From Candidatus Latescibacterota bacterium (GTDB taxonomy: Bacteria > Latescibacterota > UBA2968 > UBA8231), in contig OZ241889.1 of the NCBI GenBank assembly GCA_965203355.1, positions 1,984,001-2,048,000 of the forward strand: 64,000 nt of DNA, given 5' to 3'. Positions 10,591 through 35,521 of the stretch are shown piece after piece. Numbering within the stretch: the stretch's first letter is position 1; each line of letters begins with the position of its first letter. The notes under the pieces were generated by a model. That model was not told the origin of the DNA, ran no database searches, and was given only the letters and a program-made list of their open reading frames with translations. The position numbers and the translations under genes were made by a program.

Positions 10591-10591
10591 G

Positions 10592-14843: not shown

Positions 14844-14845
14844 GG

Positions 14846-15784: not shown

Positions 15785-15854
15785 AAAGCCTTGCTGGAAC
15801 GCCCGTCCCGATTATCATTAACCAACGCAACCAACAACAACAAAGGAGTGCATT

Positions 15855-16658
15855 GTGAATCTATTTTCGCTCGCGGGAAAAGTCGCCCTAGTCACCGGCG
15901 CGAGTCGCGGCATTGGCCGCGGCGTAGCCCTGGGCATGGCGGAGGCCGGTGCTACGGTTATCTGTGCCGCCCGCACCCGCAGCCAACTCGACGAAGCCGT
16001 CGCGGCCATTGAGGCCGCCGGGGGCGCGGCGTGTGCGGTTGAGTTGGATATGGCCGACCTAGCGGGCATGGACGCGGCCTTGGAGCCATGCGGCCCCATA
16101 GACATCTTGTTCAACAACGCTGGCATGAACATCCGCCAGCCCATCGTCGAGGTCTCAGAGGAAAACTACGACCAGATCATGGCCGTCAACCTCAAGGGCC
16201 TGTACTTCCTCAGCCAGAAGGTCGGTCGCCAGATGATCGAGCGCGGCCAAGGCGGCAAGATCATCAACATTGGCTCGCTGACCACCGGCTACGCCTTGGC
16301 CAACGTGTCGGTGTACACCGCGACCAAAGGGGCTGTCGGCCAGCTTACCAAGGGCCAAGCCATTGAGTTCGGGCCGCACAACATCCAAGTCAATGCGATC
16401 TGCCCGGGCTTTGTGCTCACCTCGCTCACCGAGAAGATGTGGGCCGATTCGACCATGCGCGCTTGGGGCGAGGGGCGGGTCGCGCTCAATCGCTTGGGGA
16501 CGCCCGCCGATTTGGTTGGCACGGCCATTTTTCTCGCCGCGCCCGCCTCGGATTACGTCACCGGTCAGTGCCTCTACGTCGATGGCGGCTTTATGGCTGG
16601 CGACGAGTGGCCCTTGCCGCCGGCGGCTGGTGCGAATGCCGCGAGGAAAGCGGTATAA
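15855..16658 (+). CDS. SDR oxidoreductase (gluconate 5-dehydrogenase/KduD-like)
   Basis: TGASRGIG, NNAG, YTATK catalytic motif, VDGG. GTG start after AAGGAG. Confidence 0.88.
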   Translation: MNLFSLAGKVALVTGASRGIGRGVALGMAEAGATVICAARTRSQLDEAVAAIEAAGGAACAVELDMADLAGMDAALEPCGPIDILFNNAGMNIRQPIVEVSEENYDQIMAVNLKGLYFLSQKVGRQMIERGQGGKIINIGSLTTGYALANVSVYTATKGAVGQLTKGQAIEFGPHNIQVNAICPGFVLTSLTEKMWADSTMRAWGEGRVALNRLGTPADLVGTAIFLAAPASDYVTGQCLYVDGGFMAGDEWPLPPAAGANAARKAV

Positions 16659-16694
16659 CCGCAGATTTTCCACCCCAATAAGGAGTTAGCTTGC

Positions 16695-20620: not shown

Positions 20621-20642
20621 GATTTCAACACGCACCACTACC
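20592..20642 (+). repeat. 51-bp direct repeat, copy 1
   Basis: CATACCGAAAACGTCCCGAGACCACTTGAGATTTCAACACGCACCACTACC matches 21095-21145 at 47 of 51 positions. Confidence 0.93.
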
Positions 20643-20652
20643 CGATTTCCAT

Positions 20653-20693
20653 TTGACAGGTCTTGACTGAATACTTATAAAATAAGCTATAAT
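20653..20693 (+). promoter_or_regulatory. Overlapping sigma70-like promoters for the accessory operon
   Basis: TTGACA(20653)-N17-TATAAA(20676) and TTGACT(20663)-N19-TATAAT(20688) in an AT-rich patch. Confidence 0.7.
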
Positions 20694-20698
20694 TCACA

Positions 20699-20829
20699 GC
20701 GGCGGGTATACAACCTCCGCCGTTTGCGGCACTCTTAGTCGGATTAACAGGACATGGGCACAGCGTCAATATCACAAAGCATATCATCGTTGGGATCGGT
20801 GCTTGATGCGATGACAGTGCCTTGTTTTG
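20699..20829 (+). ncRNA. Candidate structured leader RNA (short hairpin plus ~82-nt irregular hairpin)
   Basis: GCGGCGG/CCGCCGT stem at 20699-20723. CAGGACATGGGCAC (20748) pairs with GTGCCTTGTTTTG (to 20829), with inner GTCA/TGAC and AAGCA/TGCTT stems. No family recognised. Confidence 0.4.
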
Positions 20830-20885
20830 CGCTTGAAATAACGCCGAGTCTTAAATCTCATAGGTCGTTAAAAAACAATGACTTA

Positions 20886-20901
20886 CCCCCCCCCCCCCCC
20901 C
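20886..20901 (+). repeat. C16 homopolymer tract within a short leader ORF (ATG 20878)
   Basis: ATG ACT TA followed by 16 C; counted directly. Confidence 0.9.
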
Positions 20902-21094
20902 TCAATTTTCTCGGGCATTAAGCTCTAAATTCATTCATCAGCCTCTTCCCTCAGTTTCCCTTCCTCAGCGGAAGCGGGAAGAGGTATTGCTCTGCCGCAT
21001 CGGCCTGTCCCACCGGCCACCTAATAAACGAAAACCATCCTCGGTATTCCTAGCGGTTGTCGGCCGGGAGGTCGTAGCACTGGGCGGTCCAAGA

Positions 21095-21145
21095 CATACC
21101 GAAAACGTCCCGAGACCGCTTGAGATTTCAAAGCGTACCACTACC
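21095..21145 (+). repeat. 51-bp direct repeat, copy 2
   Basis: CATACCGAAAACGTCCCGAGACCGCTTGAGATTTCAAAGCGTACCACTACC, 503 bp downstream of copy 1. Confidence 0.93.
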
Positions 21146-21183
21146 AAACATGATAAGCCCGTAACTACTTACTCCAAAAAGTA

Positions 21184-22431
21184 ATGCAAGATTGGAATTG
21201 GGATAAGAACGCTTGGACTTGTTCCAAGGATAACCGCGAACATCATGCGCTCGCTAATTTTTGTGCGGTTTGCGGCGTTGCTGTCGAGAGCAAACCTGTC
21301 GATTGCATGGCCGACGTACCTCCTGGAAATAGCAAAGACAGTGCCGTCGAGAAGCTGCCGGTCATTATGGACCAAGTCGACGACCTCTTTAACGTATTCG
21401 GCCAGCCTCTATTAGTGAGTAAATCTAGTGGAAAAATGAGTACCTACATAGAGAGCGAATCACGCGCCCTGCCTCAACTCAATGGGGCTTCTTTGCGTCA
21501 GGTGGATTTTGACCGCTGGTGGATTTACGCGCTCACTGAGGAGGGAACGCTTCAAGTATTTCCGACCCCTGCATTATTGAACGACGATATGCTTCAAGCC
21601 GCTCGGTGGAAGCAGATTGCCGTGGAACATGAGCGCATCAAGAACATTGCCTTTGGCCGGGATCGGCTTTTCCTACTCGACCAAGAGGCATTGACTATTC
21701 ATGTATATAGTGTAGATAAAGCAAGTTGCCATCGATACTGGAAGAAAGAGACAGACATCTTCGACCAATTGAAAGAGCCATACGAGAATTCGTCGCCTAT
21801 CGAAGAAATGATTCCAATTCGGGGAAGCGAATCCTATCTGGGCTTAATAGAAGAGCAAAACAGGGTTGCTTTCTTGGATTTAGAACAAGGAGAGAAAATT
21901 CCGTATATGGACCCACTCGGCGACACATTAGAAGCCTGGGCGGGAGTGATGTACGGCGAAGAGCCGAAAAAGCCGTCAATATGGCTATTGACTAAAGAGG
22001 GTGACCTAGCGGCCCTAAATTTAGTCGGCCAACAGGTGAGAAAAGATATACTTAGCCAAGGCGAGGTGTGGGCCCTACAGGTATTGCGGATCGAATCCGA
22101 CTATTGGTATGTGGCGATGGAGCACAATCGAATGCTGTTGTTCGATCCATTGGATCGGCAAATTAAGTCCGAATTGGAGTGTAGTCCCGGATATTACTTG
22201 GAGCAAATCCATAAGACTAAAGGCATGGGCGGCTTGATCACCAACTTCCAAAAAGGGGGAGTGGGAGCTAATACGTCATTCCATCTTTCCCGTCTTGATG
22301 AACGGGGAGGGATGCCCTTGCGCAGCTATCCTTTCGGAGAAGAGCCGGTTGCGCCGCCAGCGGGTTTCGGCAAGTACGTGTACGTGCTGACTAAGGATCA
22401 TCTATATCGCTATGATCTATTGGCCATTTGA
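21184..22431 (+). CDS. Hypothetical protein: N-terminal Zn-ribbon plus probable beta-propeller
   Basis: WTCSKD...NFCAVCG ribbon; repeated beta-strand blades (WWIYALTEEGTLQVF, LFLLDQEALTIHVY, APPAGFGKYVYVLTKDHLYRYDL). Confidence 0.6.
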   Translation: MQDWNWDKNAWTCSKDNREHHALANFCAVCGVAVESKPVDCMADVPPGNSKDSAVEKLPVIMDQVDDLFNVFGQPLLVSKSSGKMSTYIESESRALPQLNGASLRQVDFDRWWIYALTEEGTLQVFPTPALLNDDMLQAARWKQIAVEHERIKNIAFGRDRLFLLDQEALTIHVYSVDKASCHRYWKKETDIFDQLKEPYENSSPIEEMIPIRGSESYLGLIEEQNRVAFLDLEQGEKIPYMDPLGDTLEAWAGVMYGEEPKKPSIWLLTKEGDLAALNLVGQQVRKDILSQGEVWALQVLRIESDYWYVAMEHNRMLLFDPLDRQIKSELECSPGYYLEQIHKTKGMGGLITNFQKGGVGANTSFHLSRLDERGGMPLRSYPFGEEPVAPPAGFGKYVYVLTKDHLYRYDLLAI

Positions 22432-24031
22432 AAACCAGCGACTCTGGTACGTTGCTCTGCTGTGTTGCCTAGCGTTTAGCGGCCCTCGTGCCGCCGCGGA
22501 GACCAATGTCAGCATCTTGGTTGATGGCTCTGGTTCAATGGAGGGCTTCCAACAAACAGGTGAGCTACAGAAACTGCTGGTCTCGCTAGAAAAAGCTTGC
22601 CAAGACCATCAACTGGAGGCGCGCACTTTATTTTTTGTATCCCAACACCCGGACTCGCTAGTGTGGAACAAGGCGGAGTCGTACCAGACTCAAGGCGCAC
22701 AATGGGGCAGCTATACCAATTTGCTCAGGGCTTTTGAAGAAGGGCTTGGATGGGCACCTATTACCTTTTTTCTTACCGACAATGTCCAAGCGACCACCAA
22801 TGACGAGGATGTTCGGGGGCTTTATACACGTTTTGCCGAGGATGTGGTACAAGTACTGTGGGCGGTGCCGCTGAATCTGTCCTTCGACGGGAGGTTGTTC
22901 AATCACCCGGACAAGGCTTACCATCAAGGCCGGCGTGGGGCGGTCCTTTATGCCTATCTCACAGAAGAAAGTCAACGTGCTAGATTCGGCAAACTCATCT
23001 CCCAACTCAGCGCTGGCGGCTTGGAACCGATGCTGATGAAACCGCTAGACCACCGCATTGTTCTACATCGCAAACGCAGTACCCCTTCGGACCAGCCGAT
23101 CGACATCGGCATGGACGAATACGAGGCGATAAATTTTTCCTTTACGCTAGAGTCGCAATTGAGCTATCTGAATATTGATCCAACGGATGAGCATGGTAAT
23201 CAAGTCCGGTTGAAGACGAGCCAGCCTAGGATCGATCCCATGAAGGCTGAGGATCGGCGGTATTGGATTCGAGCTAGCGGGAAAGGACGAGTTACTCCAC
23301 CCCGCCTTGAAGAGAAACTGGAGCATAAAACCCAGAACAAATATCGCTATTCGTGCCGGGTCCGCCTAGGCCCGTTCTTGCCCAGCGAAGTTGGCTTCTT
23401 CGACCAGCTTGACATGGCGCGTACAAGCCCGATTCCAGTGCAATATATGTTCAAGGTCGTCTTGGAGATACCGCCTGGCTCGTTTCGCATGACTCCGGTT
23501 TATAAGGAGAAATACTTTACCGACAACCCCCAAGAAGTCGAGCGTATCTATACGCCAGACGATCTGATACACTTCCTGCACCGAGACCGAGAAGGCTTGG
23601 AAGTGGTACCCAAGGGAGGAGCCATAAGAGGCAGGTTACAAGTCCGTTCCCCGCTCTATCTGTGGCGGGCTTGGGTCGCGGTGATCTTGCTACCCTTCGC
23701 TGTGATAGCTGCCGGGGGAATGGTTTATTTTAGGAGGCTGGTTTATCGGCTAGCAGACGTCAAATACAAGCACTGGATGCGCCCCGGCACTCAAAAGGAA
23801 TTGGAGTACACAAACCAAAGCGGAAAGGATATTGTTTTGGGATATTTGCGGCGAGACAGCCTGTTCAAATGCAAATACCGCTTACTGCCGGTCGAAGAGG
23901 GCGACGAAAGGGCTGAACTAAGAAATCGGATGGACGATCCGGTCGGAAAGGAGGGGGTGGCTTTTGAAAGGGATGAAAAATGGGTTTTCAACCACAAGGG
24001 CAATGAATTTAAACTGGAACGCCTCAAATAA
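22412..24031 (+). CDS. Signal-peptide, vWA-like extracytoplasmic protein with a C-terminal TM anchor and cytoplasmic tail
   Basis: Signal peptide ending AAA-E; ILVDGSGSM (DxSxS MIDAS), FFLTDN; TM AWVAVILLPFAVIAAGGMVYF followed by about 100 aa. Confidence 0.65.
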   Translation: MIYWPFENQRLWYVALLCCLAFSGPRAAAETNVSILVDGSGSMEGFQQTGELQKLLVSLEKACQDHQLEARTLFFVSQHPDSLVWNKAESYQTQGAQWGSYTNLLRAFEEGLGWAPITFFLTDNVQATTNDEDVRGLYTRFAEDVVQVLWAVPLNLSFDGRLFNHPDKAYHQGRRGAVLYAYLTEESQRARFGKLISQLSAGGLEPMLMKPLDHRIVLHRKRSTPSDQPIDIGMDEYEAINFSFTLESQLSYLNIDPTDEHGNQVRLKTSQPRIDPMKAEDRRYWIRASGKGRVTPPRLEEKLEHKTQNKYRYSCRVRLGPFLPSEVGFFDQLDMARTSPIPVQYMFKVVLEIPPGSFRMTPVYKEKYFTDNPQEVERIYTPDDLIHFLHRDREGLEVVPKGGAIRGRLQVRSPLYLWRAWVAVILLPFAVIAAGGMVYFRRLVYRLADVKYKHWMRPGTQKELEYTNQSGKDIVLGYLRRDSLFKCKYRLLPVEEGDERAELRNRMDDPVGKEGVAFERDEKWVFNHKGNEFKLERLK

Positions 24032-24046
24032 CACTAGGGAGTCGAG

Positions 24047-25096
24047 ATGAAACGGCACATTGCGCTCGGATTCATACTGGCTATCGGCTGGATGGGGTGT
24101 GGCGGATCGGGACAAAGCGGCTCCACGTTTACCCAGCAGATTGCCAAGGAAGAGAAGGGAAGCGTGGTATTCCTCAAGGTCTCTACCAATGAGGGAGAAG
24201 GCCTGGGGAGCGGAATCATTGTTAAGTCAACGGGCCAAATTCTCACGGCGCACCATGTGATCAAGGGGATCAAAGAAGGATGGGCCAAGCCCTTCAAAGG
24301 GGCTTGGATGCCGATTACGGGTGTTGTCGCCCAAGACGAACTCAAGGATCTGGCGGTGATAAACGTCGATCCGGGCAACCAATTCCTACAGCAGTCTAGG
24401 CTTGGATCGGGAGAGTATATAAGTTCGGGCGATCCCGTAGTGGCAATAGGCAACCCGTTGGGGCTAGAGTACTCGGTTACCGAAGGAATTATCTCCGAGG
24501 TTCGCACTACCCCGGAGGGGCTCAGGCTGATTCAGACGGATGCTGCCGTATCGCCGGGCAATAGCGGCGGCCCCTTATTCGACCAGAACGGGGAGGTCAT
24601 TGGTGTGGTAAGTTTTAATCTAAGCTCTAGCCGCGACGAGGGGCAGAATCTCAATTTTGCGGTCTCAATTGATGAAGCTAGACCCCTGTTGGGGCTCCCC
24701 TCGGACCAATTTGAACCTGTTCGGGTAGGAGTCCCGCCACCGGAGACTAGGTCGCAGGCCTCCTTTCGTTACGTGGGGATTGTACGCATCGTCTGTATTT
24801 TGGTATTTTCTGTAACCTTATATCTCTTTTCGGCCTACATAGTCTTTAGCGGGCTCATCAAGAACCGAGACAAGCACCCGGCCACGGCTTTTGGCATATC
24901 CGCCCTCTTATCGTGGGGGGGCTTTGCGTTGATTGCCGCCTTTGTGTTGAGTGGCCTTTTTGATTTTTTAATGGGCTGGGTGTCAGATTCGCAAATTGAA
25001 TGGAGAATCTTCATCGCCGGACTGGTGTTCGCACTTTTCATCGTGGTGATAGTAAGACTTGTTTCCCGGCCATCGACCGTTAAAGATTCAGAATGA
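24047..25096 (+). CDS. Trypsin-like (S1C, PDZ-less) serine protease with lipoprotein signal and three C-terminal TM helices
   Basis: GWMGC lipobox-like; LTAHHV, DLAVI, SPGNSGGPL triad; three hydrophobic segments at the C-terminus. Confidence 0.85.
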   Translation: MKRHIALGFILAIGWMGCGGSGQSGSTFTQQIAKEEKGSVVFLKVSTNEGEGLGSGIIVKSTGQILTAHHVIKGIKEGWAKPFKGAWMPITGVVAQDELKDLAVINVDPGNQFLQQSRLGSGEYISSGDPVVAIGNPLGLEYSVTEGIISEVRTTPEGLRLIQTDAAVSPGNSGGPLFDQNGEVIGVVSFNLSSSRDEGQNLNFAVSIDEARPLLGLPSDQFEPVRVGVPPPETRSQASFRYVGIVRIVCILVFSVTLYLFSAYIVFSGLIKNRDKHPATAFGISALLSWGGFALIAAFVLSGLFDFLMGWVSDSQIEWRIFIAGLVFALFIVVIVRLVSRPSTVKDSE

Positions 25097-25187
25097 GAGA
25101 CGACCGCCGGAGACTTCGACCTGAGCGCGGCCGAAGATTTTCAGGCCACATCTAATACCCGTTGGAGCAAAATTGAAGGAGAACGCT

Positions 25188-28100
25188 ATGCCTGAAGTCA
25201 GTACTCTATTTCAAGCAAAAGAAGACAAGAAAAAGATCAATATCCGTCCCACGCTTTTGATTGGTTTGGGCGGCACGGGAAAGGAAGTACTGCGGCGACT
25301 GCGGCGGATGTTCTACGAGAAGTACAGAGTCGTGGGTTTACCCGTCATGGAGTACCTATGGTTCGATACTGATATCCGCAATGAGTCTCTGAGTGGGGAG
25401 GCTCCAGACGAGTTAGACAAACGCATTGACCTTGCTACTTCACAGAAGATTGATGGGCGGATTCAGCCTGAGGAGTTGGCTGGATACCGACGTAACAAGA
25501 ATGCCTATCCGCATATATGGGAATGGTTGCCCAGCCAACTAGACGCGCTACCCGACAATGCCATCACACAAGGGGCCGGGCAGATCCGTTCCTTCGGACG
25601 GTTGGCTTTCTTCCACCATTATGCAAAAATTCGCAACGCCATCAGCACATTGGGGGAAAATGTCCGTGCCGGAGAGGCCGTCGAGGCCATGAACCGCCAT
25701 TACCCTGATTATGAGGTGGATACTACCACCTTGGAGATCATTACTGTGTCTTCCCTCGGTGGTGGAACGGGGTCTGGTTGCTTTATCGACATCGGATTTC
25801 TATGTCGTTCTTTGTTCTCGGCTTCTACGCGCACGACTTTTCTTGCCATGCCCACGGTTTTCGACGGGGTGGTGGGTCCCACAGGGGTAGAGGCCGTCCA
25901 TGCCAACGGCTTCGCCGCGCTCAAGGAACTCGAGTACTTCATGCAGCCCCGGTTCAACACAGACGAGGAGACAAGTGAGTACTCTACTCACCGATTTAAT
26001 TGGGATGGAACTACACAGGACGTGCCAGCTCCGCCTTTTTCTACGGTCTATATGCTCGACAAGAAGAATAGGGCTGGAGAACACATTGATGAATTCACCG
26101 ATACATTCCAGATGATTGCTGAGTTTCTGCTGCTGGATTTCGACAAGACCGGATTCGCTACTCAAAAGCGCAGCGTACGTTCCAATATGGAGCAGTACCT
26201 ACAGAACGTGACCACCTTCCGCAGCGGAGAATATGTCCAGTATTTTCCATGCCGATACGCATCTTTTGGACTCTCCCAGATTGAATTGAATCAGCCTCGT
26301 CTGGCCAATGCGGCTGCCAACCGTTGTGCTCAGTATCTGGTAGAACTCATCATAGCCAAGGACAACAGAATCCCCCAAGGTTATGATGATGCCGATGTCA
26401 AGCCCCGCATGGAGCAAATGGGCCTGACTAAGGAACTCTTTTTGCAACGCTGCCTGGTCAAGCCAGGAAAGGATTTCACCTTGATTGACGAGGTCGTCAA
26501 CGAGTTGATCGAACCGGAGTTTAATAAGTTGCGGGACGAGCTGTACGCGGCACCGGTAGTAGAGGACCAAAAGGTTTTGGAGCACCAAGTGGAACAAACG
26601 CGGCAGCAGGTGGATGAATTGGTCCGCCAAGTACGGGAACGAGTAGGGGAAAGACTGTTGCAGCAAGGGACCAGAAAGGGTGATGGTGTGACGCAGATTT
26701 TGGAAAATATCGGCGAGAACCGTCCTATGCTCGAAAAGCGAGTAGAGGATGAATGCCTGAGATTGCTGTGCGACCCCTTGGAGTTTGGCCCCAAATTCAT
26801 GGTTGAGTGGCTGAAGATCGCCGTCCCTGCACTGGAGCGAGTCAAAGAGGAATTGCAGGCCATGGAGAATCGGCACATAGAAGCTCCAGAGGCTCCGCCG
26901 ATCAAAATCGAATTTTCCGACGAGTACAATAAGTACGAGGCTCTCCTACGAGCGGCTCGGCAGGAGATGCCCTTTGCCTTCTTAACGAAACGCATTGCTA
27001 TCAACCATTACCAAGAACGCAAACGGAAGTCTTTTAATCAGAATGCCCAACTCATCACCCGTAATCTGGTGGAGCAGGTAGAGGCCGTCAGGGACCAACT
27101 CAAGCAATGGGTCACCGATCGCTATGAGCAGGAGGCAGCCCGCCGGCTGCTCAATCCCAATTCCGGGAGACATAAGCAGGAAAAGGGCCTGCTTGACAAT
27201 ATAATCGGTTTTGTTGGCCAACAGACCGAAGTCCGGGGTGCCGATGGCGAGCTTCAGGTGGAACTCAGTGGTTTGCTAGCCAAGGTGGAGAAGTTTCAAG
27301 AGCATCTTCAAGAGATGGCTAACCGCTTTAAGGGCTTCCATCGTTCTTATAGCAAACGGGAGTCTCGTGTTCGCAATCTTAATCTCATGCCTAAACTTAA
27401 CTACCGCGAGGAAATAGAGACGTACCTGCGCGAGAAAAAAGGACGGACAGGTGCCGGTTTCAATGAAGTTTTGCAAGGTGTTTTGGGGATGTATTTCCTC
27501 TCGGAAGAGGCCCAGTCGCTGTTTGCTGAATACGCTACTCGCGAAGGGAACGAGATCGATGCCATACGCGATTGTACCCGCATTATCTTCGATCGCTCTG
27601 CTAATAGGGATAATATATCTCGTGCTTGGGAAGAGGTAGAGGATTCATTGAGTAAGTTCGCGTTTGGCCTATTTAAGGAGTTCTATGCTGATAGAAACGC
27701 CGTTCAAGAGGTGCAAAACCAGAACTATAATGAGAAAGATGAGATCCAAAAAAGATCAAGGCTGGCCGAACCCCGGATGTCCGAGTCAACACCACGTTTC
27801 TTGGGTATGGATCCTCATATTCAGATAACAATAGGACATCCTCCAGGTGAAGACAGATGGGAAACGCTAATCAAACAAAACGTGCAAGACCCTCAACCGG
27901 AGAACCACGCTCCCGATTCGGTTATATTTGTTAGCCAATGGATGGCCTTTCCTTTATTCGCTATCGACAATTTGCGGCAACTACACGAAGCATATGAAAA
28001 AAACCTTATGACGCCACAAAATGTATACCGTCGGTATACGACCAAGGACTATATCAAATACCCGGAGATTCTACCGCCTAAAGACGACTACGAAGCGCGA

Positions 28101-28637
28101 AAGCTAGTGGATGCCTTACAGCCACTCATTGATGGTATCCTACTCGGGATAGTGATTTATGACGACGACCGAGGATTCTACCGAACCTACCGCGCACAGG
28201 GCCGAAGGCACGAAGACCATTACGGACTAGATCTCGAGGGGGCACGCCGGACTTTGGCCCGAGACCAGAATATACGAGATCGGCTGCGCCAAGAGGTACA
28301 AAACATTAAGGATAACTGGCAATTGAATGGCAATAACCTCGCTTTTAAGCAGTACTTGGCCCTCCGAAGCCATATAATGGATAAGGTGTATCCCTCTAAC
28401 AAAGTTATGATGCGCGGCGAGCGTGCGAAGGCGGATGGCTTATTCCACGACCTGCTCGGGAAGGCTTTCGAAGAGGCTTTCAAGGATGTGCGAGAGTGCT
28501 TGGGCATCAGTACCCGCGAGTTGGACGATCTTGTAGAGCAATACCTGAATGACAAAGATAATTTTGCCAAACGCCTGGACTATCGCGATCCGCACTGCAA
28601 AGACGCCATATATGTGATGACGGCTACCGATGTTTAG
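25188..28637 (+). CDS. Tubulin/FtsZ-like GTPase domain protein (Tubulin_2/FtsZl1-like) with long helical C-terminal extension
   Basis: LLIGLGGTG, GAGQIRSFGRLAF, SSLGGGTGSG (tubulin signature), ANGFAALKEL; about 750 aa helical/coiled-coil tail. ATG 25188 follows AAGGAG. Confidence 0.88.
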   Translation: MPEVSTLFQAKEDKKKINIRPTLLIGLGGTGKEVLRRLRRMFYEKYRVVGLPVMEYLWFDTDIRNESLSGEAPDELDKRIDLATSQKIDGRIQPEELAGYRRNKNAYPHIWEWLPSQLDALPDNAITQGAGQIRSFGRLAFFHHYAKIRNAISTLGENVRAGEAVEAMNRHYPDYEVDTTTLEIITVSSLGGGTGSGCFIDIGFLCRSLFSASTRTTFLAMPTVFDGVVGPTGVEAVHANGFAALKELEYFMQPRFNTDEETSEYSTHRFNWDGTTQDVPAPPFSTVYMLDKKNRAGEHIDEFTDTFQMIAEFLLLDFDKTGFATQKRSVRSNMEQYLQNVTTFRSGEYVQYFPCRYASFGLSQIELNQPRLANAAANRCAQYLVELIIAKDNRIPQGYDDADVKPRMEQMGLTKELFLQRCLVKPGKDFTLIDEVVNELIEPEFNKLRDELYAAPVVEDQKVLEHQVEQTRQQVDELVRQVRERVGERLLQQGTRKGDGVTQILENIGENRPMLEKRVEDECLRLLCDPLEFGPKFMVEWLKIAVPALERVKEELQAMENRHIEAPEAPPIKIEFSDEYNKYEALLRAARQEMPFAFLTKRIAINHYQERKRKSFNQNAQLITRNLVEQVEAVRDQLKQWVTDRYEQEAARRLLNPNSGRHKQEKGLLDNIIGFVGQQTEVRGADGELQVELSGLLAKVEKFQEHLQEMANRFKGFHRSYSKRESRVRNLNLMPKLNYREEIETYLREKKGRTGAGFNEVLQGVLGMYFLSEEAQSLFAEYATREGNEIDAIRDCTRIIFDRSANRDNISRAWEEVEDSLSKFAFGLFKEFYADRNAVQEVQNQNYNEKDEIQKRSRLAEPRMSESTPRFLGMDPHIQITIGHPPGEDRWETLIKQNVQDPQPENHAPDSVIFVSQWMAFPLFAIDNLRQLHEAYEKNLMTPQNVYRRYTTKDYIKYPEILPPKDDYEARKLVDALQPLIDGILLGIVIYDDDRGFYRTYRAQGRRHEDHYGLDLEGARRTLARDQNIRDRLRQEVQNIKDNWQLNGNNLAFKQYLALRSHIMDKVYPSNKVMMRGERAKADGLFHDLLGKAFEEAFKDVRECLGISTRELDDLVEQYLNDKDNFAKRLDYRDPHCKDAIYVMTATDV

Positions 28638-31600
28638 GGAAGTGAGTCAAGAGTGGGCCGACAAGGTGATGGGTGCTTGTCCTGTTTGTCAGTGGCCTTA
28701 TGGCAGTCGAATCATCTTTTGCAGCAGTTGCGGGATTCAACTTGCCCGTCTAAAGGTATCTCCCAAGCCCGGTGAGTCGTTGACGCTTTTCGCAGGCTTT
28801 CCAGTCATCATGCGGTTCGAGAATACCGGGAAAATACCGGTGAAACTGGAACGTCTCGACGGAGTGGAATGGGGAGAATGGGTTTCGGAAACGGATTGGC
28901 CAGTCTCCTTGGGGCCAGAGGAAAAAATAGAAATACGCCGGCAGCATACCGGGCGTCTCGGTCAACGGGGACGGTTGACCCTGCACTCCACGGTGCCACC
29001 GATCTTATTTTCTTACCGAGTCCAAAAAGCTCCCCGAATCTGGCTGACTGACGAGCAGGGGCGGGAGTTTGCCCAAGGTACTGATGGTGCCCAGTTGTGG
29101 CCGGTAAATCGGGAAGCCCAAAGGCACGATTTAGTCCTTCACACCACAAGCGAAGTGGTTTTGGAAAAGCCTCCCCGTCTGGCCAAGGGAAATCAGGTGG
29201 TGAGTATAATGCCGGTGGAAGAGGTAAGCTATCCTTTCCGCTTAGGGCCAGATAATTCCCTTTCGATAAGGCTTACCCAAGATCAGCCGCTGTCTGAAGA
29301 AGATCATTCAGTACATCTCGTTTTCCCAATCCAGAACATAGGTGATGTCGATTTTCATCTCAATCTAAAGCACAGTCTTCGGCCAGTGATCAAGGTGGAG
29401 TTCAATCCGCTGAGTTTCACCGGTGATAATGCACTTATCAGTGGAAGCCGAAAACAGAAGAATGTGAGTACTACCATTACGCACTTACGGGGCGCACCAC
29501 TACGCATAAATATCGTGACTAGCGATACGTCTTGGTTGCAGGTCGTCGACACGAAAGAGACCCCGATTACCCTGAACTCTCAGAATTCAACGGCGGGAAC
29601 CGATGAGAAAAGTATGCTGGATCTCCAGTTGCAAATAAAGACTATCGACATCCCCCGGGTAACAGAATCAAAGCATTTTAGACCCGAGATCATTGTCAAG
29701 GGGGAGGCTATAAGCGAGGAAGATTCGGCGTTCGAAGATAGGTATTCTCTCTCTGTCGAAGTAAGACCGCCCAAAAAGTTAGACTATCCTATTGGCATAG
29801 ATTTTGGGACGACCAATTCCTGCTTGGCCTATTATGATGAAGATGAAGAAATAATCTTGGCAAAACTCGAGCTGAGTGAATCTCGTGACGAAGTGCCGAC
29901 TGTTTTTCAGTTTCTGGCAATAAATGATAAAACGGAACGGTTGGAATTTTCCAAACCTCTGGCTCCTAATGAGCATCACTTGATGGCGACCGAGAACAAA
30001 GAAGCCATCATGCGCTTTGGGCGTCAGCCATTTCAGCAGATTAACGATCATTCTATGAGCAGTATCTGTTGGAATTTCAAATATGCTCTCAGTCAACCCA
30101 ACGATCGGAATATCTATATTTCTACCGGGATGTCGGAAGGTATCTTGATCAACGGACATCCCCCCATCAATAGGCGGGACATTAGTCTGACTCCGGTGGA
30201 CCAAGTAGCTATTTATCTTCGATTTATGGTAGAACACTTCATTGGAGAATCCAGGTATTTGCCTAGCGAGTGTGTGCTGACTTATCCGGCGGTATTCAAT
30301 CGCCAAAAACAGGCTCTGCAAGACGCCGCCGAAAAGGCCTTGCAGGATCGCGATATTAAGTTTCACTTGGCCATTAGTGAACCTGAAGCTGTTGCGGTGT
30401 ATTATGCGTGGAAGCAGCTTGAAGAAGAAGATGGTGATATAGGTGAGATCATTGGGGTATTCGACTGTGGTGGGGGAACGACCGATATGTCCATCGTCCG
30501 TTATACTGATGATGGCAATGGAGCGCAGATGGAGATTCTCGGTTCCGATGGCGACAACCAGCTGGGAGGAAACCTGCTGACATTTCACTTGGCTAAATAC
30601 TTCTACGAGCAACTCGTCCCTGAGCAGCACCGCAGTCGCTATCCCTTTGCAAAAGATCTACGTGATGGCTTACGGACACAAGATTCCATTGTGAAAAAGA
30701 ACTTTCTGTATCTTTATGATTTAGCTGAGGAGATCAAGAAAAACAGCAAGACCTATGAGAGATTCGATGAATGTTTTTCCCAAGCTCGCTACAAGGAACT
30801 GAACCAGACAAAAGATAAGGGGGTGCTGGACCTGCTAGACAGTGACAAAAAACTGAATTGGCCCAGGATTGAGTTGGTAGGCCGGGAAGAGGGCGATGAG
30901 TTTCTCGCGGGAGGATTAAAGCGCAGCATAAACGGCGAGAGCTTGCCAGAGGAACTTAGCTCTATGGATTATCAAGCTATTCGCTCTGTGCTCAGCGAAC
31001 AATTGAAACAGGGTTTCGAAAAACTAGCTATGATGCAGAAGGAGCTTTACGACCGAAAGATTATATCGGAGCGCAGGCTGGACCAGCTGATCTTGGCTGG
31101 TAATTCGTCTAAACTGCCGATTGTGAAAGAGGTCGCCCGGGAGATGATAGAAGCTAAAAAGTTCTCGGACTCTGCTCTTTCTTCAGAGGCGGGCTCCAAT
31201 GATGGCTTGAAGGCGAGCGTGGCTTCGGGAGCGACTATTTACAGCAGGTCTCAACGTGATCCAGAGTCCAGACTCCGAGTCCTTGGGATAAACAAGCTAA
31301 ATTATCCGATAGGTTCCCACAGTCCAATGCGAGGTTTCAGCCCCATTTTCGACCGTTGGATTTCCCTAAGTGAGGGGGAGGTACATTCCTATGCGAGCAA
31401 GGTTTTCTCCAAGGATCGACTTTCTCATATATTACTGTACGAATTTTTCGATTGGAACTATAAAAATCGGAAAGTAAAGCCACGTAAAGTAGCGGATATT
31501 CCCATGCCGGTAAAGGACGGAGCTTTTAACCAGGTCTCTTATTGGCAGTACAAGCTTGAGCTTCGAGGCGACAAAGACAATATCGGTCGGCTCTATTATA

Positions 31601-31689
31601 ATTTCGCGGCAGGACAGGAAGAGGATGGGAGTGATTTTGAAGAAGTCTATGATGAATACCTGGAGTGTGAGGATTTTAGTTATAGTTGA
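28630..31689 (+). CDS. Divergent Hsp70-family ATPase with N-terminal Zn-ribbon and Ig-like domains
   Basis: CPVC..FCSSCG; beta-rich ~330 aa region; GIDFGTTNS, ISEPEAVA, FDCGGGTTD, GDNQLGG, LAEEIK, LAGNSSKLP, VASGA. Confidence 0.85.
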   Translation: MFREVSQEWADKVMGACPVCQWPYGSRIIFCSSCGIQLARLKVSPKPGESLTLFAGFPVIMRFENTGKIPVKLERLDGVEWGEWVSETDWPVSLGPEEKIEIRRQHTGRLGQRGRLTLHSTVPPILFSYRVQKAPRIWLTDEQGREFAQGTDGAQLWPVNREAQRHDLVLHTTSEVVLEKPPRLAKGNQVVSIMPVEEVSYPFRLGPDNSLSIRLTQDQPLSEEDHSVHLVFPIQNIGDVDFHLNLKHSLRPVIKVEFNPLSFTGDNALISGSRKQKNVSTTITHLRGAPLRINIVTSDTSWLQVVDTKETPITLNSQNSTAGTDEKSMLDLQLQIKTIDIPRVTESKHFRPEIIVKGEAISEEDSAFEDRYSLSVEVRPPKKLDYPIGIDFGTTNSCLAYYDEDEEIILAKLELSESRDEVPTVFQFLAINDKTERLEFSKPLAPNEHHLMATENKEAIMRFGRQPFQQINDHSMSSICWNFKYALSQPNDRNIYISTGMSEGILINGHPPINRRDISLTPVDQVAIYLRFMVEHFIGESRYLPSECVLTYPAVFNRQKQALQDAAEKALQDRDIKFHLAISEPEAVAVYYAWKQLEEEDGDIGEIIGVFDCGGGTTDMSIVRYTDDGNGAQMEILGSDGDNQLGGNLLTFHLAKYFYEQLVPEQHRSRYPFAKDLRDGLRTQDSIVKKNFLYLYDLAEEIKKNSKTYERFDECFSQARYKELNQTKDKGVLDLLDSDKKLNWPRIELVGREEGDEFLAGGLKRSINGESLPEELSSMDYQAIRSVLSEQLKQGFEKLAMMQKELYDRKIISERRLDQLILAGNSSKLPIVKEVAREMIEAKKFSDSALSSEAGSNDGLKASVASGATIYSRSQRDPESRLRVLGINKLNYPIGSHSPMRGFSPIFDRWISLSEGEVHSYASKVFSKDRLSHILLYEFFDWNYKNRKVKPRKVADIPMPVKDGAFNQVSYWQYKLELRGDKDNIGRLYYNFAAGQEEDGSDFEEVYDEYLECEDFSYS

Positions 31690-31768
31690 ATGCTTTGTCG
31701 TAATGTATCTGAGTGAGTAATACATAGAAAGATAAAGACCTAAAAAAACGAAACCGAGTGAGATAGCT

Positions 31769-32704
31769 ATGGCAGAATTCCAAGAAAAAGTTGACGCCCT
31801 AGGCAACGAAACTGCCCACTGGGAAAAAGAGCTCCAAGCTCTGCAGGAAATAGTATCCAAGACAAAACAGATCCGTGAAGAACTACACAAAAGAGATCTC
31901 AGCGATCTTGGCTTCGCGCAGACCCTTGATATAGCCAAGTGCTTCGATGGAGTGGAAGAGACCGTTGTGAAGAGGATAGGCGGGTTCTTATATCATATGA
32001 GTGAGTTCAGAGACAAGCTGGAAAAGTTCCGCGGCGATATGGAGGCGTCCTTCGATGACTACGAAAAGATCTGCGAATCTATCCCTGTCAATACGAGATT
32101 TCAAGAGTTACAAAAACTAGAAGCCGATCTACAGAAGAGCCTAAAATCGTTCCAACAAGAAGTACAGGATACCTCTGAAAAATGGAGTAAAAAATACTCA
32201 GATATTACAGGTACCCGAGAGCGTTTTCGAGAAATATTCGACGAACTGTCCCTAGAAGCTAAAGAAAATATGCCATCGACACAGGATGCTGAGAACATTA
32301 ACCAGGACATCGAAAAGCTCAAAGAAGCAGTGAATAGATTGGAGTTGTCTTCTCCCGTGCAGGAGGAATCGGGCCTCAGAGGTCAACTGACGACGATTCA
32401 AAACAAGATGGACAATCTCAGTAGTCCGTGGGATTCTGAACTAATCGATTTAGTCAAACGGTTAGGTGAAAAAGAAAAATCACTAGAACAAAAACTGGCG
32501 AAATTGGAAAAATTTGTCCAAGAACGCGATCTCGAGTTGGTTTGGCCACAACGGGGAGACGAATATTCGCAAGAATATCACAAAATTTTAGATGAGCGAG
32601 AAGATGCTCAGATAGGCCGTGGTCAAGTAATTCAGCTAGTCGCTCCTGGATTACGCCGGGGGACTGACGTATTAATCAAGGCCGGGATTTGGCTGGCGAA
32701 ATGA
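31769..32704 (+). CDS. Long coiled-coil protein with GrpE-like C-terminal domain
   Basis: Heptad-rich N-terminal ~250 aa. C-terminus LELVWPQRGDEYSQEYHKI...GQVIQLVAPGLRRGTDVLIKAGIWLAK parallels the GrpE beta-domain pattern (G.PFDP..H....G.V..V...GY....LR.A.V.V). Confidence 0.7.
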   Translation: MAEFQEKVDALGNETAHWEKELQALQEIVSKTKQIREELHKRDLSDLGFAQTLDIAKCFDGVEETVVKRIGGFLYHMSEFRDKLEKFRGDMEASFDDYEKICESIPVNTRFQELQKLEADLQKSLKSFQQEVQDTSEKWSKKYSDITGTRERFREIFDELSLEAKENMPSTQDAENINQDIEKLKEAVNRLELSSPVQEESGLRGQLTTIQNKMDNLSSPWDSELIDLVKRLGEKEKSLEQKLAKLEKFVQERDLELVWPQRGDEYSQEYHKILDEREDAQIGRGQVIQLVAPGLRRGTDVLIKAGIWLAK

Positions 32705-32752
32705 GAAAAAGGGTAACTGAAACTTGCAACTACAGCAGAGAAATCCCCTCCC

Positions 32753-34384
32753 ATGAATTTAGACTTCTTAGCCCAGAACAGCGATCAGATTCGGGACTTT
32801 TTTGTCGTTTTCATTGTCTTGGTAGGTCTAGTCGCGCTTGTCCTATTTGTCCAAGGATACAGAAGAACGCAGACATATCGTCTCGGATTGGGTGCTGTGG
32901 AGATGTGGGAGAGGTGCAATCCAGATTTTAATATAGAAGAAAAGACCGACCAATCCCCTGAAGATATTATTAAGGAAGCCAAACATCCCTTGGCTGTCTC
33001 TTGGCTCGAACGTTTTAGAGCCTTATACCGGCAAAATAGGGCTCCAGATGTAGATAGTCTTGTCGGCTCTATCGAATACGAGCTTGCCCGGTACGACGAA
33101 GTATTCCGTTCGCTTACCAGCAGCCTCATTCTATTGGGCCTACTAGGCACATTTGTTGGATTGATAATCGTGGTCATACCTATCCCGGGTATTATCCAAG
33201 GGGCGCAAATCTCACCAACATTGAATCAAGAGGTAAAAATAGAGGATGTATTTAGTACCATTCTAGAAGGACTGGGGCAGTCAGTAGAAGGAATGCCACT
33301 GGCGTTCATTACCAGCATAATAGGGCTTTTCGCTACCTTAATCCTAAATGGCTTATACAGTCTTCTATTACTCCGCACTAGGAACATATTGTTGGCAGAC
33401 ATAGAAGAGTGTTTCAACGTGAAAATCGCCCATAGGTTTGCTGTAATTCCACCACAGCTACGTTTGAGTCACACCTTTACTCGAACAGTAAACGACCTAT
33501 ACGATAAGTACTTCACTGCTCTTTCCGAATACTTAGACAAAAGACTCAAGGAAATTGCCGAAAATAACGCCCGCTTGGTTGCACTTATAGAAGAGAGCGG
33601 CACGAAGCTCAAGGAGAGTAGCGAGGCCAGTCTGAAGAGCGCGGAGATTATTGATCAGCACAAGGATACGGTAGCTGCGGGGTCGGAAAAAATAATGAGA
33701 GCGGCTATAGAGTTTTCTCGACACATCGAGAACTTTGAGCGGCTAAGCTCGCCTCTGAATGCGCTCAAGATCAGCGTCGATACTATGCTCAGGGAGAGCG
33801 AGAGACTGATGGTCCGACAATTTCAAGCCTTTGATGAGCGGATGGACAAACAATCTAAGTCATTCGAGGCGCGAATGGAGACCCTAGGAGATGGCCTAGC
33901 CGAGACTCTGGATACGATAAGAGGATTGAACGACACAGATTATCGTCCCAATTTCGTGAACATCCAGAACCTGCTCATAGCGGTCCGGCAGAGCCAAGAT
34001 GCCTTCCTCGAATTTCAGAGGAAGACGCTCAACGAGCAAGGCGAAGTGTTTGAAGGAGTCAAGAAAACCCTACAAGATGAGTTGGAAAGGTTTCGCCAAG
34101 ATCTGAATGGCTCGAACAAGGAGATAAAGTCGTTGCAGAACCAGCTAGGCCAAGTGGTAGGAGCCATCAATCAAGGATTCGAAAAAACTGGGGAGGAACT
34201 CCAAGTACTGAAAGCTATCGATTTGATGGTCCAGCAGCTCGAAGACATGAATACGACGGCGCAAGCTATAGAAACTCAGTTTGATGGTATAGCGAAATCG
34301 CCGCAAGGTATTACCGTAATATCTCGAAGAAAATGGGGTTGGAGTGGTATCCGCCGATTATTCAAGAAAAATAGCAAGAAATAG
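32753..34384 (+). CDS. MotA/TolQ/ExbB-family proton channel with long coiled-coil tail (ZorA-like)
   Basis: TM1, ~90-aa cytoplasmic loop, LILLGLLGTFVGL, GMPLAFITSIIGL, then about 330 aa helical tail. Confidence 0.8.
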   Translation: MNLDFLAQNSDQIRDFFVVFIVLVGLVALVLFVQGYRRTQTYRLGLGAVEMWERCNPDFNIEEKTDQSPEDIIKEAKHPLAVSWLERFRALYRQNRAPDVDSLVGSIEYELARYDEVFRSLTSSLILLGLLGTFVGLIIVVIPIPGIIQGAQISPTLNQEVKIEDVFSTILEGLGQSVEGMPLAFITSIIGLFATLILNGLYSLLLLRTRNILLADIEECFNVKIAHRFAVIPPQLRLSHTFTRTVNDLYDKYFTALSEYLDKRLKEIAENNARLVALIEESGTKLKESSEASLKSAEIIDQHKDTVAAGSEKIMRAAIEFSRHIENFERLSSPLNALKISVDTMLRESERLMVRQFQAFDERMDKQSKSFEARMETLGDGLAETLDTIRGLNDTDYRPNFVNIQNLLIAVRQSQDAFLEFQRKTLNEQGEVFEGVKKTLQDELERFRQDLNGSNKEIKSLQNQLGQVVGAINQGFEKTGEELQVLKAIDLMVQQLEDMNTTAQAIETQFDGIAKSPQGITVISRRKWGWSGIRRLFKKNSKK

Positions 34385-34405
34385 CTAGAGCCATCGGCTG
34401 GATGC

Positions 34406-35080
34406 TTGGGAAAGCAGCCCCGGATGAAAAGGAATCGCAGTAGCCATAGTGGACTCAATTTTTGGCCTTCTTTCACGGACGCAATCACGGCTATCTTCAT
34501 TTGCGTCACTTTTTTTCTTGTTGTGATGGTGATCAAAAATTATGTGGATCTGAGCCGGCTGCGGACGCTGGAAGAATTGGTAGGTAAGATAGAGAAAGAT
34601 CTCGATGAGTTAGAGGGATTTATGGTAGAGGAAGACGTCGTCGTGGAAGAAGGTACCATTGTGATGCACAGTGACATCTTGTTCTCTTTTGATAAGTCCG
34701 ATCTAGGTGATATTCCCATCGAAGGGCAAGATCGGCTCAGGCGAATAGGGCGAAAATTAAAACAGTTTATTGAAGAAAAAGATAGTAAATTGTTCAGTAT
34801 TGTGGTAGAGGGACATACCGACAGTTACGGCGAGAGGGAATACAACCGCAATCTATCCCTGAAACGATCGCAAACTGTAGTGGACTATTGGGAGCAGGTC
34901 GGTTTCACTTGGGAAGATTTCGATATAGTCCCGGTTGGCTTAGGCGAGCGTGATCTGGTTGTCCTAACCGGAACAAAGGAGGAACAGTCCCCTAATCGAC
35001 GTATCGTGATCCGGTTGGTGCCTAAATTTAGCCAACTAATCCAGAGCCTACAGGAGCAGAACATCCTACTGAGGGATTAG
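34406..35080 (+). CDS. MotB/OmpA-family peptidoglycan-binding protein (ZorB-like)
   Basis: FWPSFTD TM with the conserved Asp; ILFSFDKS, VEGHTD, NRNLSLKRS, NRRIVI. Alternative start ATG 34424. Confidence 0.88.
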   Translation: MGKQPRMKRNRSSHSGLNFWPSFTDAITAIFICVTFFLVVMVIKNYVDLSRLRTLEELVGKIEKDLDELEGFMVEEDVVVEEGTIVMHSDILFSFDKSDLGDIPIEGQDRLRRIGRKLKQFIEEKDSKLFSIVVEGHTDSYGEREYNRNLSLKRSQTVVDYWEQVGFTWEDFDIVPVGLGERDLVVLTGTKEEQSPNRRIVIRLVPKFSQLIQSLQEQNILLRD

Positions 35081-35248
35081 CAGCACTCTGTCATTCAACC
35101 TCTTTATTGTGGCGTCGGGCGGTAAGGATTGTTCGGCGCGATCGCGAAAGAATTGGAGAGCCTCCAGACGCCCACTTCCGCGACGATTTTCACCCTGACA
35201 TAGCTGTTGCAAGATCGAGAAGTAGCGGGCGATATGGGCTGGGCGCCC

Positions 35249-35278: not shown

Positions 35279-35289
35279 TGAGTAAACAA

Positions 35290-35480
35290 CGGCGCAGGTG
35301 CCCGCTGCTGCATGGCAGTGGGAGAATAGGGAAGGCAGTGCAAATCTGCCGCGGTCCCGCCACTGTGACCGGTTGACGGCTTAGGGGTCGTCGCGTCCCC
35401 GACATCAGCCACTGATCCGCATGCGGATCGGGAAGGAGTCGGGCGGCATATAACCGGAAGTCAGGAGACCTGCCTGCGAC
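35290..35480 (+). promoter_or_regulatory. Cobalamin (AdoCbl) riboswitch
   Basis: AGGTGCCC..AATAGGGAAG..GTGCAAATC..CCCGCCACTGTGA..GCCACTG..GGGAAGG..GAAGTCAGGAGACCTGCC (B12 box), upstream of a TonB-dependent receptor. Confidence 0.95.
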
Positions 35481-35521
35481 CGAGGTGAACGACACCCTTC
35501 GGCAGAAAGGTTGGTCCGCCG

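Follow-up and report, generated by a model that had tools for sequence, protein, structure and literature searches.

An island of eight genes in the genome of a Candidatus Latescibacterota bacterium brings together, on one strand, the predicted subunits of a Zorya-type motor, a giant tubulin-like protein and an Hsp70 homologue. It lies in a stretch of 64,000 nt (GenBank assembly GCA_965203355.1, contig OZ241889.1, positions 1,984,001-2,048,000), called here the window, whose numbering is used throughout unless another locus is named. The genes are designated g1 to g8, and all are on the + strand. The first three encode a putative zinc-ribbon and beta-propeller protein (g1, 21184-22431, 415 aa), a vWA protein predicted to be exported and to carry a transmembrane (TM) anchor (g2, 22412-24031, 539 aa), and a probable membrane-tethered HtrA-like protease (g3, 24047-25096, 349 aa). 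They are followed by a tubulin-like GTPase of the Tubulin_2 (FtsZl1) family (g4, 25173-28637, 1154 aa), a protein combining a zinc ribbon, Ig-like domains and a lidless Hsp70 (g5, 28630-31689, 1019 aa), a GrpE-like coiled-coil protein (g6, 31769-32704, 311 aa), and finally the ZorA-like (g7, 32753-34384, 543 aa) and ZorB-like (g8, 34406-35080, 224 aa) subunits. Genes g1 and g2 overlap by 20 nt and g4 and g5 by 8 nt, and the remaining gaps measure 15-79 nt. The GC content of the island is 0.49 vs 0.63-0.64 in the flanks, and that of third codon positions (GC3) is 0.46-0.60 in the island genes vs 0.75-0.81 in the flanking genes. An earlier note on this DNA had claimed eight co-oriented, closely spaced reading frames of low GC content, and all of them are indeed found there.

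The clearest link to a known machine comes from g8. The protein matches the PADLOC model ZorB1 over almost its entire length (4.4e-21, residues 8-218 against profile positions 7-228 of 232) as well as Pfam OmpA (2.4e-12), and its family profile aligns over the full length with the ZorB structures 8vvn_B (1.3e-13) and 8qyd_F (1.8e-12). In 11 sequences W20, P21, F23, D25, H137 and R154 are invariant, and with them the TM motif FWPSFTD, which holds Asp25, and the OmpA-type motif GHTD...R. Judged from these alignments, g8 is a ZorB-like subunit, with an N-terminal TM segment carrying Asp25 and a C-terminal OmpA-type domain predicted to bind peptidoglycan. In its partner g7, three TM segments are joined to a cytoplasmic tail, helical and about 300 aa long. 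The protein matches the PADLOC model ZorA3 (2.3e-8, residues 121-504), and its profile matches the ZorA structure 8qyy_A at E 0.015; T133 is nearly invariant and S188 invariant. Pfam MotA_ExbB does not match g7 and does match its counterpart in a distant metagenomic locus discussed below (L052, 1.4e-11). A word-indexed profile search with g7 returned 26 close relatives and one weak match of 23% identity, which says nothing about the range of the family. An identity of g7 and g8 with flagellar MotAB, with TolQR/ExbBD or with GldLM was considered and rejected, since the best full-length matches are to ZorB models and structures, MotB scores far more weakly, and there is no flagellar context. None of the type-defining Zorya partners ZorC, ZorD, ZorE, ZorF or ZorG is matched by PADLOC in the eight proteins, or at E<=1e-5 in 20 neighbouring proteins of the window. 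The eight proteins also contain neither a GxxxxGK[ST] nor an [AG]xxxxGK[ST] motif (Walker A), so that no P-loop GTPase is present.

The central gene of the island, g4, encodes its largest protein. The match to Tubulin_2 (PF13809) is strong (1.1e-67, 229 bits against a cut-off of 27) and practically complete (profile positions 1-355 of 356); the domain occupies residues 28-390 and is followed by a helical C-terminal extension of about 760 aa. The GGGTGSG motif is invariant, and the invariant residues comprise G197, G198, T199, G200, G202, N245 and E252. By analogy, N245 and E252 may be read as the T7-loop residues of a polymer-activated GTPase. Compared with the PDB, the g4 profile finds no tubulin, no FtsZ and no solved relative, only coiled-coil proteins that match residues 440-715. 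In the ESM Atlas the C-terminal part retrieves only low-score Tubulin_2 clusters, the best at 0.82. One homologue of 1267 aa (P0113) carries TIR domains (PF01582, PF13676) fused to Tubulin_2, according to precomputed Pfam annotation.

The gene that overlaps the end of g4 encodes an Hsp70 homologue. Pfam Hsp70 (PF00012) matches g5 at 3.8e-18, and the DnaK and HscA models all score far under their cut-offs. The AF2 model of g5 (pLDDT 84.4) shows a zinc ribbon, three Ig-like beta-sandwich domains, a nucleotide-binding domain (NBD) and a domain resembling the beta part of the Hsp70 substrate-binding domain (SBD-beta), while the helical lid is absent. With Foldseek, about 650 columns of this model align to near-full-length DnaK and BiP at E 1e-20. 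Across 22 sequences the four cysteines of the zinc ribbon (C17, C20, C31, C34) are invariant, as are the catalytic D391, K484, E584 and D612, and further G393 and G614-616. The neighbouring g6 is a coiled-coil protein whose last 60 residues align with the beta-domain pattern of GrpE. Its Pfam GrpE match (E 5e-4, 20.2 bits) stays under the cut-off of 25.8, and its family profile matches GrpE 4ani_A at E 0.073, colinearly at the C-terminus. A 460-aa member of the g6 alignment from locus L038, 17% identical to g6, passes the Pfam GrpE model (1.9e-9, 37.9 bits). We regard g6 as the probable nucleotide-exchange factor of g5. A predicted complex between g5 residues 380-900 and two copies of g6 residues 195-311 received an uninformative score of 0.01, and no DnaJ or other J-protein is matched among the eight proteins.

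The first three genes would place one partner in the cytoplasm and two at the envelope. No family of Pfam, NCBIfam or PADLOC recognises g1. Its AF2 model, built from a 19-row alignment, is of high quality (pLDDT 87.8, pTM 0.89) and shows an N-terminal zinc ribbon followed by an all-beta propeller, for which Foldseek ranks WD40 domains, BamB and designed eight-blade propellers first (E ~1e-9). C13, C27 and C30 are invariant or nearly so. We take g1 to be a cytoplasmic zinc-ribbon/beta-propeller protein. The family is rare, with 100 representatives at E<=1e-10 among 1.84 billion. For g2, Pfam with its vWA models returned no match, and the family profile matches the vWA chain 8s05_A at 6e-7. A signal-like N-terminus precedes DGSGS at residue 38, and the residues of the metal ion-dependent adhesion site (MIDAS), D38, S40, S42, T102 and D123, show no or almost no variation in 18 relatives. 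The vWA domain is followed by a beta-rich region, a single TM segment (residues 422-440) and a basic cytoplasmic tail of about 100 aa, a topology retained in 17 of the 18 relatives. This pattern identifies g2 as a predicted exported vWA domain with an intact MIDAS and a membrane anchor. The g1 profile gives weak matches to another chain of the same entry, 8s05_C, and to ArnA 5a8i_A (E 0.02-0.03). Entry 8s05 bears the title 'Conserved protein', and we take it, as a guess, to be an ArnA-ArnB complex. Finally, g3 matches Trypsin_2 (8e-28) and shows a GNSGGP motif; it has three C-terminal TM segments and no PDZ domain. The DegP/HtrA models reach 6e-40, yet remain far under their own cut-offs. The likely product is an exported HtrA-like serine protease domain held by its three C-terminal TM segments.

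These assignments agree closely with what the earlier note had called from the sequence alone: a zinc-ribbon propeller, a vWA-TM protein, a protease with three TM segments, a tubulin-like protein, a zinc-ribbon/Ig/Hsp70 protein, and MotA-like (long-tailed) and MotB/OmpA-like subunits are all recovered. Its GrpE-like call for g6 holds for the C-terminal motif and is not backed by the Pfam score. The note had also seen neither a nuclease or helicase effector nor a P-loop GTPase, as is borne out here, and it had proposed a PADLOC search, in which the ZorA and ZorB models match and no complete system is recognised.

The eight genes form one conserved unit. A scan of species-representative genomes with g4 yielded seven loci, all from metagenome-assembled genomes titled Latescibacterota, which make up a close clade. 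Within this clade the eight genes occur in identical order in all seven loci, at 63-92% identity. A second, more distant clade retains the order in all six loci fetched, although identity falls to about 45% for g4, 36% for g5, 26-29% for g1 and 24-28% for g7; the place of g6 is taken there by a 266-313-aa protein with an N-terminal TM anchor that shares the C-terminal motif of g6. Gene order is thus common to 13 of the 13 Latescibacterota loci examined, down to 25-45% identity. Had the gene set been confined to this genome, the proposal of a system would have fallen, as the earlier note had itself laid down; the arrangement in fact recurs far beyond chance. In the phylum as a whole, g4 finds a match in 16 of 167 species genomes (15 strong, 1 weak), and the matches split into the close clade (70-85% identity) and the second clade (45-47%). 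Within the close clade the ratio of nonsynonymous to synonymous substitution rates (dN/dS) is 0.13-0.50 in the island vs 0.09-0.20 in three flanking genes, and always <1. Purifying selection therefore acts on the island genes, though less strongly than on their flanks.

This unit sits in a variable site as an accessory block. Upstream of it lie genes for an acetate-CoA ligase and a glycogen-debranching enzyme (gde), and downstream a cobalamin riboswitch, a TonB-dependent B12-type receptor, a protein with a type IX secretion system (T9SS) tail and a PduO-type adenosyltransferase. Homology to five empty-site loci stops at 20578-20580 and restarts at 35243-35248, so that comparison with the empty sites of close relatives sets the limits of the block at 20579..35243, about 14.7 kb. 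Among 24 genomes with a gde at least 85% identical to that of the window, 7 carry the cluster. Ten of the 17 cluster-less relatives were fetched; in eight of these the gde lies 0.3-1.1 kb from the TonB-receptor gene, that is, the site is empty, and in the other two it holds different cargo. The gde/TonB-receptor site behaves as a variable hotspot. In one relative the cargo consists of two leucine-rich repeat proteins, a ThsB-type TIR protein (4.8e-8) and a trypsin-like protease (L119:9959-16004), and in the other of a single 1927-aa He_PIG/T9SS-tail Ig-domain protein (L111:1923-8518). The eight genes are gained and lost together, co-inherited as a block. No integrase or transposase family is found among their Pfam matches, and no tRNA gene in the window. 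An att-like duplication of the empty-site sequence CTTGACAGATTTCAAC at the island ends was considered and set aside, as the left copy is imperfect and absent from other island-bearing loci; with at least one match in 22 of 100 shuffles, the pattern was rejected as evidence of site-specific integration.

Some related loci are decaying. In L007 an insertion of 1.2 kb interrupts the tubulin gene after about residue 470; it carries a DDE transposase on the minus strand (L007:11481-12491, DDE_Tnp_1_5 7e-39). An intein or intron was considered for this insert and rejected because of in-frame stop codons, the lack of an Rfam match and the transposase on the opposite strand, which identify it as an insertion sequence (IS). 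Three IS3-type copies, each with a 109-aa HTH reading frame and a 304-aa rve reading frame, lie among the genes downstream of the Hsp70 gene in L031 (16799-22641), and no ZorA/ZorB-like gene occurs within the stretch of L031 examined. Given the patchy distribution, the empty sites and the IS-broken genes, the cell can do without the system.

Several observations concern the edges of the block. The island is inserted just upstream of the promoter region of the cobalamin riboswitch (RF00174, 110 bits, 35279-35491, + strand), which adjoins the island end and precedes the gene for the TonB-dependent B12-type receptor; the genes behind it also include the PduO adenosyltransferase and FecCD/ABC transporter genes. 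A 51-nt direct repeat with one copy at the left edge of the block and the other just upstream of g1 (20592-20642 and 21095-21145, 92% identical, 503 nt apart) is present in the window only and absent from every related locus, and the gap upstream of g1 is about 400-500 nt longer in the window than in relatives.

The neighbourhood suggests a first alternative, in which the island would be a dedicated quality control or assembly apparatus for an exported or surface client, perhaps tied to the nearby T9SS cargo, with Hsp70/GrpE and the HtrA-like protease doing the work and the tubulin and motor serving as scaffold. An Hsp70 with an SBD-beta-like domain, a GrpE-like factor and an HtrA-like protease do stand in one operon, T9SS-tail proteins flank the site, and the 1927-aa T9SS Ig protein occupies the same site in one relative. 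This explanation is nevertheless improbable: the eight proteins include no J-protein, their family matches no secretion component, and the Hsp70 would be cytoplasmic while the protease would be periplasmic. Moreover, the T9SS neighbours remain in genomes without the island, and other lineages carry the core without any T9SS context.

A metagenome scan with the g4 alignment gave 232 confirmed loci, 80 of which were kept and searched with profiles made from both Latescibacterota clades. Genes resembling g2 occur in 31 of the 80, as do those for a g5-like Hsp70, and the latter are present in 19 of the 30 loci of at least 15 kb. In Pfam scans a recurrent order emerges: a zinc-ribbon protein of ~420-445 aa, a g2-type protein of ~530-630 aa, a small TM protein, Tubulin_2, and a zinc-ribbon Hsp70 of ~880-1030 aa, which is sometimes followed by a membrane protein with a GrpE domain. 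A ZorB-like match occurs in two of the 80 loci only, L052 and L087. L052 is an eleven-gene operon with an Hsp70 that ends in the MotA_ExbB gene mentioned above and an OmpA gene, and these match the PADLOC models ZorA2 and ZorB1. In L087 the tubulin gene is followed 4 kb further on by ZorA-like, ZorB-like (8e-21) and protease genes, with two long opposite-strand reading frames in between. The core, made up of propeller, vWA, tubulin, Hsp70 and GrpE-like genes, is thus widespread, and the Zorya-type motor a minority add-on, fixed in these Latescibacterota. Of the gene set whose co-occurrence the earlier note had asked to be looked for, Tubulin_2, Hsp70 and MotA/OmpA genes stand together in all 13 Latescibacterota loci and in L052.

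Most Tubulin_2 loci do lack stator genes, and such figures could be taken to mean that an orphan ZorAB-like pair happens to neighbour an FtsZl1-vWA-Hsp70 operon to which it is unrelated. We consider this very improbable. In all 13 Latescibacterota loci, down to about 25% identity, both parts are neighbours on the same strand, with 21-79 nt between genes; they come and go as one block, and they recur together in the distant L052 and L087.

The gene neighbours of related loci were also scanned for defence. Seventeen non-redundant long loci with both tubulin and Hsp70 were considered, operon-borne trypsin-like proteases being set aside in the count. PADLOC-recognised defence genes lie within about 10 kb (E<=1e-8) in two of them, L052 and L045; L052 directly follows the S and M genes of a Type I restriction-modification (RM) system and a GmrSD-like gene. 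Association with defence islands, whose enrichment the earlier note had proposed to check, is accordingly weak. Tandem nucleotidyltransferase-HepT (MNT/HEPN-type) genes lie between the g2-type and tubulin genes in L042 (7831-9386) and L045 (8041-9603), and in L042 a caspase-FGE-sulfatase fusion and an RRXRR/HNH gene are found just downstream of the tubulin gene (13512-17175).

With so few defence neighbours (2 of 17 loci), a non-immune machine for remodelling or repairing the envelope has to be weighed. A motor driven by the proton-motive force, the vWA protein and the protease would then act on the wall or outer membrane, a tubulin-like polymer would shape or seal the inner membrane, and the Hsp70 would recycle it. 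Five of the eight proteins are membrane-bound or exported and none is a toxic effector, membrane remodelling is what was originally proposed for FtsZl1-vWA-OmpA operons (Makarova and Koonin, 2010; PMC2875224), and a 2025 paper puts forward vWA proteins as force transducers of 5:2 motors (PMC12204202). On the other side, the patchy distribution, the empty site in close relatives and the IS-broken copies mark the system as dispensable, the motor is nearest to anti-phage ZorAB and not to TolQR, ExbBD or MotAB, and g2 lacks the N-terminal anchor topology of the vWA transducers described in that paper (PMC12204202). A repair machine comes a close second in our estimate, a serious candidate that is nonetheless doubtful.

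The reading we prefer, while holding it tentatively and at less than even odds, is that the eight proteins of the island make up a single accessory system that spans the envelope and belongs to the FtsZl1-vWA-Hsp70 class, with a ZorA5B2-like motor of Zorya type added to it, and that its role is most likely in conflict, against phages or other invaders. A conflict role is favoured because the motor is nearest to the anti-phage ZorAB, because the system has a patchy distribution, a variable site and IS decay, and because a TIR-Tubulin_2 fusion (P0113) exists among the homologues. It is favoured as well by the position of L052 directly behind Type I RM and GmrSD-like genes, by the PIN gene and Type III RM pair that lie in the window 8 kb upstream of the island, with five housekeeping genes between, and by the classing of tubulin/HSP70 gene sets as conflict systems in a 2020 survey (PMC7159879).

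A possible course of events can be proposed along the lines of the Zorya mechanism, as far as it is set out in PMC11946911. Outside, the ZorB-like subunit, the exported MIDAS-bearing vWA protein and the tethered HtrA-like protease would engage an event at the envelope, such as phage attack or damage to the wall or membrane. Ion flow through the Asp25 pathway would then set the ZorA-like pentamer turning, together with its tail of some 300 residues. Inside, this g7 tail and the cytoplasmic tail of g2 could recruit the zinc-ribbon propeller and the giant tubulin-like GTPase, which would polymerise at the membrane site as the output, replacing the nuclease of Zorya. The lidless Hsp70 and its GrpE-like exchange factor would load, restrain or dismantle the polymer. 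Taken to its end, this scheme would make the island a fourth Zorya-type immune system, in which a ZorAB-like motor senses the phage and a GTP-driven tubulin-like polymer forms at the entry site under private Hsp70/GrpE control; this stronger claim is rather unlikely. On the same unlikely footing, and by analogy, g4 might be a bacterial cytoskeletal immune effector with a logic comparable to that of the polymerising immune GTPases and septin cages of eukaryotic cell-autonomous immunity.

A conflict role has several points to answer. The eight proteins contain no nuclease, NADase, pore or other classic effector and no complete PADLOC system; defence genes accompany only the two loci named above, and a search of viral contigs yielded no g4 relative. 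Within the close clade, the island keeps to one chromosomal site, with L005 as the one exception, and carries no mobility genes. The PDB profile search and the literature read hold no solved structure or demonstrated polymer for any Tubulin_2 protein. The assignment of g7 to ZorA depends on modest E-values, and that of g6 to GrpE is weak, indeed the weakest among the domain calls.

Whatever the role, the island matters because the Tubulin_2 (FtsZl1) family is widespread and has no member with a known function. Here it is given a concrete context: within a compact, self-contained block of 14.7 kb, the tubulin-like protein is wired up with a motor of the Zorya type, the mechanism of which is now understood. 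If the motor drives or triggers a polymer, 5:2 ion motors would gain a new kind of output, and homologues of tubulin and Hsp70 a new bacterial role; if the role is immunity, it would add a non-enzymatic, cytoskeletal class of effectors.

Elsewhere in the window, a second low-GC islet (52-54%) is found 8 kb upstream of the island (7313-13678, - strand). It contains the PIN-domain gene and the Type III restriction pair already mentioned (Res, 947 aa; Mod, 616 aa, PADLOC MTase_III 8e-126), together with a RadC-like JAB gene and a short Fic-like C-terminal fragment. Next to it (2561-7282, + strand), a 1573-aa protein with an FtsX-like permease region matches the PADLOC model 'CARF_LolE_TM' (8e-50), probably through the LolE/FtsX membrane part only. 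An 828-aa reading frame at 49203-51689 (+ strand) has no Pfam family at E<=1e-5. Among the public sequencing runs listed as containing this DNA no RNA run appears, and two DNA runs labelled sponge metagenome each contain 0.31 of the sampled words.

The closest known systems include the FtsZl1 operons, in which genes for vWA and OmpA-family proteins, kinases and P-loop GTPases are found (Makarova and Koonin, 2010, Biol Direct 5:33; PMC2875224). Their proposed function in membrane remodelling is a prediction only. Like the island, these operons combine Tubulin_2 with a membrane-associated, MIDAS-intact vWA protein and a peptidoglycan-binding protein of the OmpA family. Kinases and a diverged P-loop GTPase are frequent, though not obligatory, partners there, whereas the island has no kinase match and no Walker A motif. 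Hsp70, DnaK, GrpE and MotA do not appear in the main text of that survey, while the island has an Hsp70, a GrpE-like protein and a ZorA-like subunit; some of the island proteins may nonetheless belong to the unnamed families A1-A2 and B1-B9 described there. The OmpA-family partner was then taken for an outer-membrane protein, but that of the island appears to be an inner-membrane stator subunit of ZorB/MotB type, paired with a ZorA-like channel. At least in loci like the island, what the 2010 survey listed as 'OmpA-family' partners of FtsZl1 may thus be stator B subunits.

A second relative is found in the DO-GTPase/GAP1 conflict systems with their tubulin or HSP70+GrpE themes (Kaur, Burroughs, Iyer and Aravind, 2020, eLife 9:e52696; PMC7159879), which are predicted to be NTP-dependent conflict systems working near the membrane. 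They share with the island a tubulin with a helical C-terminal extension, TM vWA proteins, HSP70 and GrpE, zinc ribbons and trypsin-like peptidases. They are, however, defined by one or two DO-GTPases (TRAFAC) and GAP1, and the island has no P-loop protein. GAP1 gave no match in the eight proteins, in libraries that hold no known GAP1 model, and all eight are otherwise assigned, leaving no candidate. The tubulin and HSP70+GrpE themes are described as non-overlapping and mostly from Firmicutes and Actinobacteria, while the island joins both in Latescibacterota. The zinc ribbon common in DO-GTPases is present in g1 too, but g1 is predicted to fold as a propeller. MotA goes unmentioned in the available text of the paper and its one mention of OmpA concerns a different system, whereas the island has a ZorAB-like pair (PMC7159879).

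Zorya systems of types I-III join ZorAB to ZorCD, ZorE or ZorFG (Hu et al., 2024, Nature, PMC11946911; Mariano et al., 2025, PMC11890865). As in the island, ZorB has an essential TM aspartate and a peptidoglycan-binding domain, ZorA has three TM segments and a long helical tail, and the A gene precedes the B gene. The tail measures about 500 residues in ZorA of E. coli vs about 300 in g7, the sequence similarity of the A subunit to ZorA is weak, and in place of the type-defining partners ZorC-ZorG the island has six proteins of another system class. With the DnaK-GrpE pair, g5 shares the catalytic residues of the NBD, an SBD-beta-like fold and a neighbouring gene with a GrpE-type C-terminal motif; it differs in lacking the helical lid, in having no J-protein found beside it and in about 380 extra N-terminal residues (zinc ribbon and three Ig-like domains). 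In the ArnA-ArnB pair of Sulfolobus, a zinc-ribbon FHA protein and a vWA protein (PMC6509490), a zinc-ribbon gene likewise adjoins a gene for a vWA domain, a beta-sandwich and a C-terminal region. There the differences are that g1 is a predicted propeller and not an FHA protein, that the vWA domain of g2 would be exported, and that the island has no kinase or phosphatase genes.

In the literature, no paper was found that joins ZorAB with tubulin or Hsp70, or tubulin and Hsp70/GrpE with a ZorAB-type motor outside a DO-GTPase/GAP1 core, and the Zorya and stator-evolution papers, in their available text, mention no tubulin or Hsp70 partners. The earlier note had not recognised the combination. 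It was right as regards the joint operon of tubulin, Hsp70 and ZorAB, and less so as regards its components, since Tubulin_2-vWA-OmpA sets were known from 2010 and the tubulin and HSP70+GrpE themes from 2020. As judged from its gene content, the island lies outside Zorya by its effector genes and outside the DO-GTPase systems by its GTPase, and it fits the loose FtsZl1-vWA class. Its parts are known from computer surveys, and their combination with a Zorya-type motor is new.

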